This document shows, one piece after another, positions 7,749-17,729 of a stretch of DNA of 27,222 nucleotides. The stretch lies in contig RDOE01000045.1 in NCBI GenBank assembly GCA_011364975.1, positions 1-27,222 on the forward strand, given 5' to 3'. The position numbers and the translations under genes were made by a program. The notes beneath the pieces were generated by a model. It saw only the letters and a program-made list of their open reading frames with translations. It was not told the origin of the DNA and searched no databases. This stretch comes from Promethearchaeota archaeon (GTDB lineage Archaea > Asgardarchaeota > Lokiarchaeia > Sigyniarchaeales > SOKP01). How positions within the stretch are numbered: the stretch's first letter is position 1; each line of letters begins with the position of its first letter.

Positions 7749-9692
7749 ATGGAAAATTCTGAAATGCAACGGATTGGATACTACGCTTGTCAATGAGGAA
7801 TTAATATCCGAGGAAAAGTTGATTGTGATAAACTTGTAGAATTTGCCAAAACTAATGATGGGGTTGTTGTAGCAAAAACTCACTCGTTTTTATGAACTGA
7901 AAGTGGTCAAAACGAGATTATTGGAGATATCCGAGAAAAGAATTTGACTCGTATTGTTGCATCGGCTTGAACTCCACGAACCCATGAGCCTATATATAGA
8001 GGGTCGATAGCAAAAACTGAACTTAACCCGTATTATTTTCAAATGGTTAACGTTCGGGAACATTGTTCATGGTGTACGGAAAATAACGAAGAAGCCCTCG
8101 AAAAAGCAAAAGTCTTAGTAAAAGCAGGATTAGATCGCGCAAGAACATTAGAAACGGTTCCAATTAAAACAGTACCAGTAGAAAAAGCATGCTTGGTTGT
8201 AGGTGGTGGAATCGCTGGAATGAATGCTGCTCTTGATTTAGCAAATCAAGGGATAAAGGTTTATCTTGTAGAGCGAAAATCAACCATTGGAGGTAGGATG
8301 GCTCAGTTAGATCGAACCTTTCCTACTGATGATTGTGCAATATGAATCTGTGGGCCTAAAATGTTAGAAGTCAATCGTCATGAGAACATAGAAATTTTAA
8401 GCTATGCAGAAGTTAAAAAGGTTGAAGGATATGTTGGTAATTATAATGTTACCATTGAAATTAAACCTCGATTTGTCGATGTTGAAAAATGTAATGGATG
8501 CGGTGCTTGTAGTGAGGTTTGTCCAATATATTCTGATAACTACTTTGATGAACATCTAGGTCCACGTAAAGCCATAGATATAGCATTCGGTCAAGCAGTT
8601 CCCTTTCTTTATGACGTGAATCGGGAAGTTTGTGTCGAATGTTTTTCTTGTGTTGAAGCTTGTGAATTAGATGCAATAGATTTTAGCCAATTACCCAAAG
8701 AATTAGAACGAAAAGTGGGTACAATAATAATTGCTACGGGCTGGGACATTTATGAACCTTTTGGGGAATATGGCTATGGAGAATATGAAAATGTGATAAC
8801 ACAATCCCAATTAGAGAGAATACTAGCACCTAATGGTCCCCTTGAAGGCCATGTTCATCGTATATCAGATACTAAAAAACCTCAAGAAATTGTATTTATT
8901 CAATGTGTAGGAAGTAGAGAGACTGAAAGGACTTATTGTAGCGGAGTCTGCTGTATGTTAGCCTTAAAAAACGGAAAGTTATTAAAAGAAGAGTTTCCCG
9001 ACGCTAACATTACTATCTGTTATATAGACATTAGAACTAATGAAAAAGGATTTGAAGAATATTATCAGCGTTCTAAAGATTCTGGAATCACCATGATTAG
9101 AGGTAAAGTTGGTGAAATATCCGAAGATAAAGAGACAAAAAATGTTAATATTCGAGTATATTCTTCCTTAACGGATGAAATTATACGAATTAGTGCTGAT
9201 TTAGTTATTCTTTCTTCGGCAGCATTACCTTCTAAAGGGACAGAACAAATTGCTAAAGTATTAAACTTAGATGCGGATACCTACGGTTTTTTAACAGAAT
9301 CACATTTTGGGTTAATGCCACAGGAGACAAAATCTAAGGGGATCTTTATCGCGGGATTCGCACAAGGCCCAAAAGATATTGCCTATTCGGTATCTCAGGC
9401 TAGAGCAGCAGCAAGCAAAGTAGCAGAACTAACTTCTCCTGGTGAAATTGATATTGAACTAATCACTGCAGAAGTAAATCCTGAATTCTGTATTATTTGC
9501 AAACGCTGTGAAAAAGAATGCCCGAAGATGGCAATTAAGGTCATGGATGATAAGGGAGCGGTGGTAGATGAAATAAATTGTGATGGTTGCGGAATATGTG
9601 CCACCTGTTGTCCAACAAAAGCGATAGACATTAGATATTATCGAGATCAGCAACTATTTAGCGAAATTGATGGAATTTTAGAGGGAGGTTAA
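7749..9692 (+). CDS. hdrA: Heterodisulfide reductase subunit A, selenoprotein with 4 Sec (647 aa)
   Basis: One frame from ATG 7749 (MENSEMQRIGYYACQUGINI...) to TAA 9690-9692. In-frame TGA at 7794 (CQUG), 7893 (FLUT), 7968 (SAUTPRTHE) and 8343 (DDCAIUICGP). This joins track ORFs 8043-8345 and 8361-9692. GGGIAG FAD motif, CVGSR/YCSGVCC and ferredoxin motifs present; GGGGTGA at 7729-7735. Confidence 0.93.
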
Positions 9693-9698
9693 ACAAAT

Positions 9699-10154
9699 AT
9701 GAGCTATAAATATGAGATCATTATGTTTGCCTGCTTAAAATGAGGATATAGCGCAGCAGATTTAGCAGGAGTTTCAAGGCTAAAGTATACTCCTTCAGTA
9801 AAAATCATAAAAGTGCGCTGTACTGGGAGAGTTGATGTACAACATATTCTATACGCTATAAAATCTGGAGCGGATGGAGTCATGATTGTGGGATGACGAC
9901 CTAATGAATGTCAATTTAAAAATGGTAATTTCACTGCCCAACGACATGTTGATTTGGCAAATAGAATTTTGGATTCAAGAGGATTCGGAAACCAAAGAAT
10001 TAATATGTACTGGTTAAGTGGTGCTGAAGCAGAAAAATTAGTTAAAAGTGTTGAAGATGCGTATGAAAAAATAAATCGATTGGGACCTAATCCTATTAAA
10101 CTAACGGATATTAAAACTGAAAAAAAGCAAGCAATAATAACACCTGTGGAATGA
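9699..10154 (+). CDS. mvhD: MvhD/VhuD [2Fe-2S] subunit, selenoprotein with 2 Sec (151 aa)
   Basis: ATG 9699 after SD GGAGG (9684-9688): MSYKYEIIMFACLKUGYSAADLAGVSR...VRCTGRVD...GADGVMIVGURPNECQF...WLSGAE. TGA at 9741 and 9894 align with Cys in the mvhD at 17292. Confidence 0.93.
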
Positions 10155-10186
10155 TTCTTACAAAAAAATAGTAGTTGTAAGATGAC
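10151..10186 (+). promoter_or_regulatory. Eukaryote-like SECIS element
   Basis: ATGAT-TCTTACAA-(AAAAATAGTAG)-TTGTAAGA-TGAC: AUGA/GA tandem G.A core, perfect 8-bp upper helix (10156-10163/10175-10182), A-run in the apical loop, directly after two UGA-containing genes. Confidence 0.85.
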
Positions 10187-10269
10187 TACCTATGCGAAGG
10201 AAAGGTGTTTAAAAAAGTAAATTAATTCCAAATGGAATTCATCATTAATATATAAGAATTGGAAAATAT

Positions 10270-11763
10270 ATGGTTCAAATTGCAAATAATAACCTATTTG
10301 AGGGAATAGCGCCAAAAGAGTTAATGGATGCAACCTATAGGGCATCCGAAAATTTTCAAGTGAGAGCTTTTTTTGAAGCTAAAGATGATATTATAAAAGC
10401 AGGAAAATATTCCGAAAATGAATTTTACGAAATTTTGGATGCATTAATTGATGCTGAAACCGAACGTAAACTCGTATCAGATTTATTAAAAGGTAAAAAA
10501 CCATTATTTTTATATGAAATTGTTGAACATCTTAAAAATTTTCCAGCAAAAAATGTCGTACGAGATATTATCTATCTAAAAGAGCAAGGTTACATTAAAG
10601 AACTCATAGAAGTTAAGACCAAAATGGTTATTAAGAAAATAAAAGGAGAAGAGAAAGAGGTTGAAGAAAAAGAATACTTCTATAGATATCAAGTGAAAGA
10701 ACTTCTTGATAATGTTATAGAACACTATTTTGAACCGGTTTCAATAGTATTTAATTCAGGGGTATGCTGTCATTGCGGATGGTGCTCTTCAATTTGTCCT
10801 GTAAATGCCATAAACGTATCAGCAGATACTCTTGATGTAGATGACGAAATATGTATGAAATGCGGTTTATGTTATACAGTGTGTCCCCGCTCATTCTCGA
10901 TTGATCAAGCATATAGTACAATTTCAAAATTGAATAAAACCTTAAATTTCTCGGAATCAATGGGTGCCTACATTAATACATATACTGCGACTACAACAAA
11001 AGAGGAGATTAAAAAAGTGCGTCAAGATGGAGGCATTGTAACTTCCATTTTGGAATATCTTCTAACCCACAATATTGTTGATGCTATCATCGCAGTCCAA
11101 CATTCCAAAGACCTTTGGAGACCCGAACCTGTAATAGTAGAAAGCGTAAAAGAATTATATAAAACAGGAGGTACGAAATATGCTAATTCTCCATCTCTCA
11201 CAATTATCGAGAAAGCAAAAAACTTTGAGAGAATTGCTGTTGTAGGAGTTCCTTGTATGATGAAAGCACTCTTCAAAGGGACATTATTTCCAAGTGGTCT
11301 ACCTTTTTTTAAGAATATCAAATATACTATTGGTTTATTTTGCATGGAATCTTTCTCTTATGATAATATTATTCAGTTAACGAAGGATAAATTTTCTCAA
11401 GAAATAACTAACCTAACTAAAATGAATATTGATAGCGGGAAATTTATTATAAACTTAAAAAATGGTGAGGAAATGGCAGTCGAGTTAAAAGAAGTCCAAT
11501 CTTATGCAAGGGATAATTGCCACTACTGCGAAGACCTCACATCAGATTATGCTGACATCTCAGTAGGTTCCATTGGTTCAAAAGCCGGATACTCATCTGT
11601 TATAACACGTTCAATAAATGGAGATGAATTATTCAGTGAGATTATTGAGAGTGGTTTAGTAGAGGTTCAAAATCTTAAGGAAGTTAAACCGGGGCAAGCT
11701 CTTGCTGAAAGAATTGCTGGATCTAAACGAACAAAATGTAAACCTATTGAATTAAGAAAATAA
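10270..11763 (+). CDS. Coenzyme F420 hydrogenase/dehydrogenase beta-subunit family (FrhB/FdhB-like) with N-terminal extension
   Basis: 2x[4Fe-4S] motifs (CCHCGWCSSICP, CMKCGLCYTVCP), 'QDGGIVT', 'GTKY', 'VGVPC', 'IGLFCME', 'CHYCED..SDYADISVGSIGS'. Confidence 0.9.
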   Translation: MVQIANNNLFEGIAPKELMDATYRASENFQVRAFFEAKDDIIKAGKYSENEFYEILDALIDAETERKLVSDLLKGKKPLFLYEIVEHLKNFPAKNVVRDIIYLKEQGYIKELIEVKTKMVIKKIKGEEKEVEEKEYFYRYQVKELLDNVIEHYFEPVSIVFNSGVCCHCGWCSSICPVNAINVSADTLDVDDEICMKCGLCYTVCPRSFSIDQAYSTISKLNKTLNFSESMGAYINTYTATTTKEEIKKVRQDGGIVTSILEYLLTHNIVDAIIAVQHSKDLWRPEPVIVESVKELYKTGGTKYANSPSLTIIEKAKNFERIAVVGVPCMMKALFKGTLFPSGLPFFKNIKYTIGLFCMESFSYDNIIQLTKDKFSQEITNLTKMNIDSGKFIINLKNGEEMAVELKEVQSYARDNCHYCEDLTSDYADISVGSIGSKAGYSSVITRSINGDELFSEIIESGLVEVQNLKEVKPGQALAERIAGSKRTKCKPIELRK

Positions 11764-14183: not shown

Positions 14184-17100
14184 ATGGAAGGTTCTGTTCT
14201 AGTAATTGGTGGTGGAATAGCAGGAATCCAAACCTCTTTAGATCTTACTGAATTAGGATTTAAAGTATACTTAGTGGAAAAATCGCCATCAATTGGAGGC
14301 AGAATGGCTCAACTAGATAAAACCTTTCCTACAAATGATTGTTCTCTCTGCATTCTAGCACCCAAAATGGTAGAGGTGTTTAGAAATCCTAATATTGAAC
14401 TGATGACATACCATGAAGTCACAGAAGTATCCGGTAAAGCAGGTGATTTCAAAGTAAAGGTTCTTAAAAAACCGCGTTATATAGATGAATCAAAATGTAA
14501 AGGATGTGGAGATTGTGCTTCAAAATGTCCTAAAATTGAAGTACCTAACCTCTTTGATATGAATCTTGGGAAAAGAAAGTCAGCATACATTCCATTTCCT
14601 CAAGCGGTCCCTCCGGTTTACTTAATCGATCCGGAATTATGCTTAAAGATAAATAAGGGAGTATGTGGTGTCTGTGCGAAGGTATGTCAAGCAGAAGCGA
14701 TAGAATTTGAGCAAAAACCTCAGGAGAAACAAACGAATGTTGGTGCAATCGTTGTAGCTACGGGCTTTGATATGCCCGCTGAAAACTTGTCTTCCCGTTG
14801 GGGATATAATTACCCTAATGTAGTAAGTGCTCTTGAATACGAGCGAATATTATGTGCCTCTGGGCCTTTTGGGGGGCATGTTTTAAGACCAAGTGATCAT
14901 ACTGAACCTGAAAGAATCGCATTTGTACAATGTGCTGGATCAAGAGATTTACACGAAGGAATTCCTTATTGCTCTAGTGTTTGTTGCATGTATACTGCTA
15001 AAGAAGCGATAATAACTAAAGAACATTCTGACAAATCTCAATGTTATGTTTTTCGTCACGATATTAGAGCCTATGGTAAAAACTTTTATGAGTTCACCCA
15101 ACGGGCTCAAAAAGAATATGGAGTAAAATATTTCCAAACAAAAATTAGCAAGATAGAAGAGGAACCTGAGACTAAGGATTTAATTATTCATTATGAAAAT
15201 TTAAAGAATGGAGAATTTAACAATTTCCGCGCAAATTTAGTTGTATTAGCAACACCCTTAGTTCCTTCTAATGGCACTCAGGAACTTGCCAAAATTTTAA
15301 AAATTGATTTAGATGAATATAACTTTTTTAAGGAGAAAGATTATTTTCATAAATCAAAGTCTTCAAAAGAGGGTATTTATTTAAGTGGATTTTGTCAAGG
15401 TCCAATGGACATTCCTGAAACGGTTGCAGATGCGAGTGGAGTAGCTGGACAAGTAGCTGCTTTTTTAAATTCGGTAAAATTTGAAAAGACGCAAGAAAAG
15501 GAGTTATTGATCCCTGAATTAGAGATTAAAGCGAGTGATGAGCCTAGAATTGGAGTTTTAATATGCCATTGTGGAATTAATATTGGAAAGTATGTTCATG
15601 TGCCTTTGCTAGCAGAATATGTACGCCAACTGCCTAATGTTGTTCATTGTGAGGATAACTTATATTCCTGTAGTTCTGACTCGCAAGCGCGGATTAAAGA
15701 ACTTATAATCAATCACAAATTAAATCGATTTATTGTAGCTTCTTGTACTCCGAGAACTCATGAAGCTCTCTTTCAAGAAACATGTCAAGAAGCAGGCTTA
15801 AATAAATATTTATTTGAAATGGTAAATATTCGTGACCAATGTTCTTGGGTTCACATGGATGATGCTGAAGCTGCAACCCAAAAAGCAAAGGATCTAATAC
15901 GAATGGCAGTTGCAAAATCAAGACTTTTAAAACCTCTTAAAGAAGAGTCATTAAAAATCACACCTACTGCTCTTATTATCGGTGGTGGGATTGCCGGAAT
16001 GAGTGCAGCATTGAATATTGGCGATCAAGGATTTAAAACCTATATTGTAGAAAAAGAACAAATCCTCGGTGGAAATTTGAATCATCTAAATGTTCTCTAT
16101 CCGATTGAGCAAGATGCTTCTGAATTCATTAAGCAAATAATAAAGTCAGTTGAACAACACAAACAAATCCAAGTGTTCTTAAATGCTAAGATTAAAGATA
16201 TAAAAGGATATGTAGGAAATTATATTGTCACAATTGTTGATTCTAAAAATAAACCTCAAGATTTAAGTATAGGAACGATAATTGTAGCAACAGGCGGCAA
16301 AGAATACAAACCAAAAGGATTATTTCGATATGAAGCTGAAAATGAAAATGTTATTACCCAATTAGAACTGGAACAGATTTTAAAGGAGAAAGGATCGTTA
16401 TGGCTGGAAACGATTAATCGAATAACAATAATTTTATGTGTGAATGCTAGACAAGTTGAGGGGATAACTTATTGTTCAAATACCTGTTGTGGTAATTCTA
16501 TTAAGAATGTAGGGCTTCTAAAAAAGTTAAAACCAGACTTGGAAATTCTTGTTCTTTATAGAGACCTTCAGATGGCTAAAAAGAAATACGAAGAATATTA
16601 TCGTAAGCGCCGGAAAGATGCTATATTTTTGAGATATGACTTAGACAATCTTCCTGTTGTTAAAAAAGTAAATAAAAAGCCAGAAAAATATAATATAAAA
16701 TTTTTTGATATCAACCTTCAAGACTTCTTAGAATTTGACACTGATGCGATTATATTATCAACACCTATTGTTCCAGAAGACAACTTAGATGATATAGCAA
16801 AAATGTTAAAGGTCCCCTTAGATAGAAATGGCTTCTTTTTAGAAGCTCATGTAAAATTAAGACCATTGGATTTTGCAACAGAGGGAATATTTTTATGCGG
16901 TTGTGCACAATGGCCAAAAAATATACAAGATTCCATTTCACAAGCGCATGGGGCGGCTGCGAGAGCAAGCAGGTTTTTAAGTGCAGAAGAAATTAAAACT
17001 TCAGGGATTGTTGCGGAAGTTAATCCTGTGAATTGTATTGGTTGCGGAAAATGTGAATCGGTATGTCCCTATAATGCGATAGATATTTTAGAATCAATTA

Positions 17101-17270
17101 AAGAGTTTGAAGATATAACATTAATCGCCAAAAAATCGTTCATTAATTCAGCCCTCTGCAAGGGTTGTGGTACCTGTGCCGCAACCTGTCCAAATGGAGC
17201 AATATCTATAAAACAATACGATTTTGATCAAATATCTGCTATGATCGAGTCATATTTATTAGAAACTTAA
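14184..17270 (+). CDS. hdrA: HdrA-family protein, double FAD-module form, Cys-only (1028 aa)
   Basis: Two GGGIAG motifs, DKTFPTNDCSLC, CAGSR/YCSSVCC, a central 'RIGVLICHCG..YSC..ASCTPRTHE..RDQCSWVH' domain and a C-terminal 2x[4Fe-4S] domain. Confidence 0.92.
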   Translation: MEGSVLVIGGGIAGIQTSLDLTELGFKVYLVEKSPSIGGRMAQLDKTFPTNDCSLCILAPKMVEVFRNPNIELMTYHEVTEVSGKAGDFKVKVLKKPRYIDESKCKGCGDCASKCPKIEVPNLFDMNLGKRKSAYIPFPQAVPPVYLIDPELCLKINKGVCGVCAKVCQAEAIEFEQKPQEKQTNVGAIVVATGFDMPAENLSSRWGYNYPNVVSALEYERILCASGPFGGHVLRPSDHTEPERIAFVQCAGSRDLHEGIPYCSSVCCMYTAKEAIITKEHSDKSQCYVFRHDIRAYGKNFYEFTQRAQKEYGVKYFQTKISKIEEEPETKDLIIHYENLKNGEFNNFRANLVVLATPLVPSNGTQELAKILKIDLDEYNFFKEKDYFHKSKSSKEGIYLSGFCQGPMDIPETVADASGVAGQVAAFLNSVKFEKTQEKELLIPELEIKASDEPRIGVLICHCGINIGKYVHVPLLAEYVRQLPNVVHCEDNLYSCSSDSQARIKELIINHKLNRFIVASCTPRTHEALFQETCQEAGLNKYLFEMVNIRDQCSWVHMDDAEAATQKAKDLIRMAVAKSRLLKPLKEESLKITPTALIIGGGIAGMSAALNIGDQGFKTYIVEKEQILGGNLNHLNVLYPIEQDASEFIKQIIKSVEQHKQIQVFLNAKIKDIKGYVGNYIVTIVDSKNKPQDLSIGTIIVATGGKEYKPKGLFRYEAENENVITQLELEQILKEKGSLWLETINRITIILCVNARQVEGITYCSNTCCGNSIKNVGLLKKLKPDLEILVLYRDLQMAKKKYEEYYRKRRKDAIFLRYDLDNLPVVKKVNKKPEKYNIKFFDINLQDFLEFDTDAIILSTPIVPEDNLDDIAKMLKVPLDRNGFFLEAHVKLRPLDFATEGIFLCGCAQWPKNIQDSISQAHGAAARASRFLSAEEIKTSGIVAEVNPVNCIGCGKCESVCPYNAIDILESIKEFEDITLIAKKSFINSALCKGCGTCAATCPNGAISIKQYDFDQISAMIESYLLET

Positions 17271-17291: not shown

Positions 17292-17729
17292 ATGCCAAAA
17301 GCAAAAGTAAAAGAAAAGTACCCGGACTTTAATCCAGAGATTTTAGTATTTTGCTGTAATTGGTGCTCTTATGCAGGAGCAGATCTTGCGGGAGTATCTC
17401 GATTTCAATACCCCCCTAATATGCGAATTGTTAGAGTAATGTGTTCGGGGAGAGTAGATCCATCTTTTGTGATAAAAGCTCTTAAAGAGGGTGCTGATGG
17501 AGTTTTAATTACAGGATGTCATATAGGAGATTGCCATTATATCTCTGGTAATGAGTTTGCGAGAGAAAGGTTTGAACGGCTACATAATATTATTATAAAA
17601 CAACTTGGAATCGATGAAAAACGAGTGCGATTAGAATGGGTAAGCGCATCAGAGGGAAAACGATTCGCAGACTTAATAACAGAATTTACCAACCAAATTA
17701 GCGAATTAGGCCCTTTAAAAGTTCTTTAA
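17292..17729 (+). CDS. mvhD: MvhD/FlpD [2Fe-2S] subunit, Cys form
   Basis: Canonical FCCNWCSYAGADLAG, VMCSGRVD, GCHIGDCHY and WVSASEG. Confidence 0.95.
   Translation: MPKAKVKEKYPDFNPEILVFCCNWCSYAGADLAGVSRFQYPPNMRIVRVMCSGRVDPSFVIKALKEGADGVLITGCHIGDCHYISGNEFARERFERLHNIIIKQLGIDEKRVRLEWVSASEGKRFADLITEFTNQISELGPLKVL

Follow-up and report, generated by a model that had tools for sequence, protein, structure and literature searches.

A UGA stop codon inside the SECIS core of a lokiarchaeal vhuD gene: an overlap common among orthologs and probably inherited rather than tuned

Selenoprotein genes of Lokiarchaeota carry a SECIS element termed lokiSECIS, in which an AUGA motif precedes a 9-bp stem capped by an 11-nt loop with leading adenines (Mariotti 2016, PMC4989117). 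In the same account, a single lokiSECIS follows vhuD in each hdrA-vhuD pair, hdrA of Loki always ends on UAA or UAG, and the stop codons of vhuD are diverse, UGA included. Many Loki selenoprotein genes are described there as ending on UGA, at a place where structural constraints preclude SECIS function; in VhuU.1 the AUGA itself doubles as the stop codon, and a minimal distance between UGA and SECIS is assumed as in eukaryotes, with reference to Martin et al. 1996. That source also gives SBP2 as having no known counterpart in Asgard archaea (PMC4989117). UGA stops of Lokiarchaeia selenoprotein genes have since been reported to overlap the AUGA motif often, and a core variant, AUGA_AA, has been described in hdrA/frhD and frhA genes (Huang, Xiao and Zhang 2024, PMC11227280), while a lokiarchaeal SECIS is reported not to be functional in M. 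maripaludis (PMC11881835). In its general form, the arrangement of a stop codon within the SECIS core is already known for these archaea, and cases of the overlap in vhuD may already be listed in the supplementary table of Mariotti 2016. Here we describe one such vhuD gene and follow the position of its stop codon relative to the SECIS through orthologs, paralogs, and the vhuU family.

The gene lies in a 27,222-nt stretch of DNA (hereafter the window; contig RDOE01000045.1) from a genome assembly of 3.74 Mb in 200 contigs with 30.6% G+C. Its close relatives carry the labels Promethearchaeota/Promethearchaeia, names that place them in the Loki group of Asgard archaea. UGA serves as an ordinary but minor stop codon in this genome, closing 295 of the 2,282 open frames of at least 200 codons (~13%). 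Across residues 7-129, VhuD matches Pfam family PF02662 (FlpD, methyl-viologen-reducing hydrogenase delta subunit) with an E value of 1.5e-44; the rest of the protein, residues 130-151, is a variable tail that extends into the SECIS. The two TGA codons of vhuD are present in 35/35 orthologs, and in alignment U15 and U66 correspond to cysteines in a Cys-type paralog of the window (17292-17729), which is without an equivalent of the C-terminal tail. An hdrA-like selenoprotein gene ends 6 nt before vhuD (Table 1), and downstream of vhuD lie two FrhB/FdhB-like genes and one encoding a CCG-domain protein, as assigned by Pfam. A second and far longer hdrA-like frame (14184-17270; 1,028 aa), without TGA, immediately precedes the Cys-type mvhD, and the window holds one Sec-type and one Cys-type hdrA-mvhD pair, 4.5 kb apart.

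Table 1. Positions of genes, codons, and SECIS parts in the window, and of other Sec-related loci of the genome (C, contig handle; L, locus handle)
Feature	Position	Strand	Details
hdrA-like selenoprotein gene	8043..9692	+	FAD/4Fe-4S Pfam domains; stop TAA 9690-9692
hdrA-like in-frame TGA	8343-8345, codon 101	+	one in the gene
vhuD/mvhD coding sequence	9699..10154	+	ATG 9699; 151 residues plus stop TGA 10152-10154 (codon 152)
vhuD Sec codons	9741-9743 (codon 15), 9894-9896 (codon 66)	+	in-frame TGA; translation with TGA = U
Outer helix (helix I), 5' strand	10139..10145	+	inside final vhuD codons; predicted to pair with 10203-10209
AUGA, 5' half of SECIS core	10151..10154	+	10152-10154 is the vhuD stop UGA
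Main stem (helix II), 5' arm, 9 nt	10155..10163	+	first position a U-U mismatch adjoining the core
Apical loop, 11 nt	10164..10174	+	begins AAAAA, ends UAG
Main stem, 3' arm, 9 nt	10175..10183	+	complementary to 10155-10163
GA, 3' half of SECIS core	10184..10185	+	followed by conserved C at 10186
Small hairpin	10189..10200	+	between core GA and helix I 3' strand
Helix I, 3' strand	10203..10209	+	predicted to pair with 10139-10145
End of hypothetical 22-residue readthrough tail	10218..10220	+	TAA
vhuU	C119:38611-38760 = L148:312-461	-	50 residues, ..FDCULSCAAH..; stop is the UGA of the SECIS AUGA
Cys-Sec-Sec frame	C169:63843-64313 = L076:1344-1814	+	157 residues; two adjacent in-frame TGA, G-C-U-U
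Putative 66-residue frame	C154:20244-20444 = L075:745-945	+	hydrophobic N-terminal stretch; one TGA (..GTUGCAS..)
Best candidate tRNA-Sec	C106:34342-34428 = L146:1501-1587	-	Rfam 40.3 bits against a cut-off of 47

A preliminary description of this DNA had noted that the same bases act as the stop codon of vhuD and as part of the SECIS core, and this is what we find: TGA 10152-10154 sits inside ATGA 10151-10154, which makes up the 5' side of the core in a SECIS of the Lokiarchaeota type. The main-stem geometry at 10151-10185 was drawn by eye, and an alignment of 35 orthologs from the same genus has compensatory changes at 5/8 of the predicted main-stem pairs, a covariation that supports the stem. 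A perfect 6-bp equivalent of helix I occurs in 70/77 distinct orthologs, compared with 24.7% of shuffles, and is built from 36 different 6-mer pairs. The small hairpin is kept in most of the 35 orthologs, its loop often being GCGA or GCAA, which gives the predicted element three helices. AUGA shows no variation across the 35 orthologs or the 54 aligned elements; opposite it, the core has GA in 66/77 distinct vhuD orthologs and AA in the remaining 11/77. We infer from these sequence comparisons that the element functions as a SECIS.

The 54 elements that had been collected were used to train a covariance model of the core. Scored over 150 of about 13,000 first-look candidates in the 3.74-Mb genome, it identified at least five sites at E<=1e-5; the alignment behind the model contained C145, C149, C154, and C169, with C119 absent, so that four of the five sites match by construction. 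Among those 150 candidates, the contig of the window has a single match. A sixth element, on C69, was missed by the core model and found by pattern scan alone, and a first genome-wide pattern scan, which was loose, returned 56 matches that were mostly chance. Each of the six elements is located at the end of a TGA-containing frame or no more than 24 nt past it. At gathering score, the window matched no Rfam family, the curated eukaryotic and bacterial SECIS models included, and no SECIS family was among the 8 Rfam matches at E<=10 within 10100-10260.

Because vhuD begins only 6 nt downstream, hdrA has no SECIS of its own, and the element of vhuD appears to serve both genes. In the pair, the three UGAs that would be recoded precede the SECIS core by 257, 410, and 1808 nt. 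Metatranscriptome contigs from three runs span the hdrA/vhuD junction (9474-9740 and 9522-9730) and also cover 9753-9979, and a contig across two genes is insufficient proof of one transcript; they cover small shares of the window and none of 10025-10348, where the stop codon and the SECIS lie, and are thus uninformative there.

With a probability of roughly 0.8, we read the UGA of the core as a genuine stop codon, its overlap with the SECIS as inherited and tolerated rather than tuned, and the lokiSECIS as the one element serving hdrA and vhuD. According to this reading, the window belongs to an Asgard archaeon that uses Sec, and the tandem pair would be served by one eukaryote-like lokiSECIS placed directly past vhuD. 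The variable tail of VhuD would enter the element, its last codons forming the 5' strand of helix I, and translation would stop on the UGA of AUGA. With this UGA in the A site, the helix I strand would already have entered the ribosome and the mRNA entry channel would be occupied by the main stem's 5' arm, leaving no folded SECIS that could recruit the Sec elongation factor, and the release factor would act. The core UGA could not be recoded because a ribosome that is decoding it has unwound the SECIS, and the UGAs further upstream would be decoded as Sec as long as the element keeps its fold. It is the geometry of the element that points both to termination at UGA 10152-10154 and to this steric reason. 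The proposal of the preliminary description, that the UGA within the SECIS is not recoded while those upstream are, agrees with the interpretation given in Mariotti 2016 (PMC4989117).

Readthrough of the core UGA would append UFLQKNSSCKMTTYAKERCLKK before the frame closes at TAA 10218-10220, and our translation reproduces this predicted peptide exactly. Codon 152 might then be a third Sec codon, with a 22-residue C-terminal extension made in this genome: the frame does stay open as far as that TAA, and the next in-frame stop is at least 67 nt downstream in 5/55 of the orthologs that end on the core UGA, the window among them. In 45/55, however, TAA follows at +10 (counting from the base after the A of AUGA) and the extension would be 3 residues long, and it would be absent altogether from the 22 orthologs with upstream stops; the other five of the 55 have TAA at +13 (4) or TGA at +10 (1). 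Orthologs therefore do not conserve a product with the 22-residue tail. Its codons are those of the SECIS arms and loop, which vary by base pairing rather than as codons, the Pfam domain ends as early as residue 129, and the tail has no counterpart in the Cys-type paralog. We find a third selenocysteine highly improbable, and this comparison of sequences brings it close to refuted. Two codons past the core UGA, inside the stem's 5' arm, the TAA at +10 provides a back-up stop that is missing from the window (10161-10163 is CAA) owing to a U-to-C difference that is compensated in the stem.

A single overlap is unremarkable, since one in three frames reaching a fixed AUGA would end on its UGA. 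Our first set of orthologs (73-84% identity) came from 34/36 other genomes of the genus and comprised 35 loci with that of the window. The core UGA is the stop in 23/35, TAG at -4 in 11/35, and TAA at -15 in 1/35, and the orthologs with TAG at -4 are in a different frame following a one-base indel. On a tree of the 35 orthologs made with the stop region excluded, five changes of register are needed, and both halves of the midpoint-rooted tree contain the core-UGA register, suggesting that it is probably ancestral in this vhuD ortholog group. Adding 69 species-representative loci gave 104 loci, 103 of them with a SECIS and 77 distinct. TGA at +1, i.e., the core UGA, terminates 55/77 distinct orthologs, the frame at the stop being extrapolated from the protein match in some orthologs where that match ended before the C terminus. 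In the other 22/77 the stop is 3-16 nt upstream: TAG at -4 (n=12), TAA at -16 (n=6), -15 (n=2), or -6 (n=1), and TGA at -3 (n=1). The expectation that orthologs hold the stop in one register with the SECIS is thus borne out by 55 of the 77 and contradicted by 22, and with five changes among 35 orthologs it is true of a majority rather than of the group. Judged from these alignments, the core-UGA register is frequent yet not obligatory for vhuD, and its recurrence in 55/77 orthologs is largely by descent.

Other families and paralogs extend the comparison. Among 39 loci of other Sec-type vhuD paralogs, 29 have a SECIS pattern (one match, at L048, clearly spurious), and the overlap occurs in 1/29, at L045, which belongs to another family of the class. 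The stops of the rest of these 29 are TAG at -4 in 8 and TAA at -21 or -22 in 10, with the remainder elsewhere down to -29; the two further vhuD paralogs of the genome studied here have TAA stops at -12 and -21. In vhuU, all 30 loci examined from the genus show the overlap (28 by pattern and 2 by eye), and the 3' half of the core is AA rather than GA in 23 of those 28.

Taken together, these counts could indicate that the overlap itself is selected, the stop being self-insulated in that a UGA that must terminate is never recoded inside the core, and selection would then maintain the register. Retention in 55/77 distinct vhuD orthologs and in 30/30 vhuU loci agrees with such selection, as do the recurrence in the distant paralog L045 and the share of UGA stops, which is 73% in the ortholog group and 13% genome-wide. 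We nevertheless hold selection on the overlap to be unlikely. AUGA is invariant for reasons of the SECIS, and an in-frame UGA would be frozen within it without any selection on termination; small indels have undone the register on about five occasions in the set of 35 orthologs; and other stops serve 22/77 orthologs and 28/29 paralog loci, mostly UAA or UAG, which are never recodable, a UAA a few bases upstream being equally safe. Since the relatives are not independent, selection and inertia are inseparable on these data as causes of the high retention. The reading that we prefer, a genuine stop whose overlap is tolerated, takes the overlap to be held in place mainly because AUGA itself is invariant, and to be tolerated and not tuned because one-base indels have repeatedly shifted the stop by a few bases upstream without loss of the gene. 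Two further patterns were considered around the stop and set aside: a UAG at -4 as a conserved RNA motif or second stop, which occurs out of frame in only 20/55 core-UGA orthologs with 6 more at -7, and stop triplets placed in all three frames by design, which are found in 54/77 and are unremarkable at 31% G+C.

The position of helix I bears on another proposal, which extends the throttling idea of the preliminary description, namely that termination on the core UGA opens the sole SECIS of hdrA-vhuD and so transiently lowers Sec insertion at the three upstream UGAs. This would amount to negative feedback on ribosome flux in which, if termination is slow, the message limits its own Sec decoding; if true, a multi-Sec polycistronic mRNA would have a built-in brake that spaces its ribosomes. 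One SECIS does appear to be shared by the two genes, given the 6-nt spacer and a single model match in the contig (150 of about 13,000 candidates scored), and in 70/77 orthologs the final codons of vhuD overlap helix I, so that every ribosome finishing vhuD must unwind the element. However, this holds whichever stop is used, and the effect would consequently not hinge on the overlap: with stops at -4 to -16, the element would enter the ribosome just the same. Moreover, a SECIS abutting the coding region worked in M. maripaludis without apparent loss. Refolding of a short hairpin is much quicker than one cycle of translation, which also speaks against such a brake. We judge this feedback, as a property of the message and as an outcome of the overlap alike, to be very unlikely, less probable still than selection on the overlap.

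The search of the genome for SECIS elements also led to genes outside the hdrA-vhuD pair. A frame with a Cys-Sec-Sec motif (Table 1) has a lokiSECIS 23 nt past its TAG stop, with the core at C169:64337, and its protein has no Pfam match at E<=0.01. Both adjacent Sec codons are present in 20/20 aligned frames of the order, most with G-C-U-U and two with D-U-U, at identities to the query down to 27%, and at least two TGA codons are present in 38/39 among the matches listed, across the order and down to 25% identity. An AlphaFold2 model, which is confident (pLDDT 86.6), predicts a beta-grasp fold extended at the C terminus by a helical part; the structures that match it best are beta-grasp proteins, the sulfur carriers SAMP1, CysO, and MoaD among them, at a Z of only 6-7, and Foldseek also returned weak beta-grasp matches (TM about 0.3). 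In this predicted model (Z 6-7), the Cys-Sec-Sec motif follows the last strand, about where SAMP1, CysO, and MoaD carry their C-terminal Gly-Gly. The protein fits none of the seven named Asgard selenoprotein families as these are outlined in the portions of the published work considered here, and a full-text literature search returned no archaeal report of adjacent selenocysteines. We regard it as a candidate selenoprotein family beyond those seven.

The putative 66-residue frame on C154 is followed, 6 nt past its TAA, by a lokiSECIS match of 54.3 bits with the core at C154:20448 (C154 being in the model alignment), and it has no Pfam match. As for the decoding apparatus, the best candidate tRNA-Sec has, by eye, an anticodon loop reading CUUCAAA together with a long variable arm, its 5' acceptor strand not being found; ARAGORN reported 16 tRNAs only in the whole assembly, with no tRNA-Sec among them.

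The element of the window is close to the lokiSECIS of Mariotti 2016 (PMC4989117) as described there: it shares AUGA, the 9-bp stem, the 11-nt loop led by adenines, and GA on the 3' side, and it likewise follows vhuD in an hdrA-vhuD pair, with overlap of the coding end possible. The hdrA gene of the window ends on TAA, like the Loki hdrA genes in that paper. There, doubling of the AUGA as a stop codon is reported for VhuU.1, and here we find it in a vhuD ortholog group. Compared with the eSECIS-like elements of Asgard archaea in Huang 2024 (PMC11227280), the AUGA_AA variant is likewise seen here, in 11/77 vhuD and 23/28 vhuU; the sections of that work considered here do not include a per-ortholog account of register stability, which the present survey provides. 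Its addition is a modest one: the register, fixed in vhuU, is common and probably ancestral in the vhuD lineage, where several losses have nonetheless occurred. Given this repeated loss, closeness of the stop to the element would matter, or be tolerated, more than exact overlap. The main bearing is on annotation: in Sec-using Asgard archaea, a UGA in or adjoining a SECIS core would be taken as a stop, and those lying hundreds of bases upstream of the core as Sec.

Similar geometry is found outside the archaea. The eukaryotic type I SECIS, with its kink-turn core of AUGA/GA and its AAR loop, has the same core motif and overall shape and follows the same logic, in which a UGA that is too close terminates; unlike the window element, it is situated well within the 3' UTR and has no overlap with the coding end. 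The in-frame SECIS of bacteria, for example that of fdhF as treated in PMC13188914, is likewise unwound by the ribosome and refolds for the next round. In that bacterial case, the SECIS comes just after the UGA that is recoded, whereas here the UGA within the element would be the one that is not.
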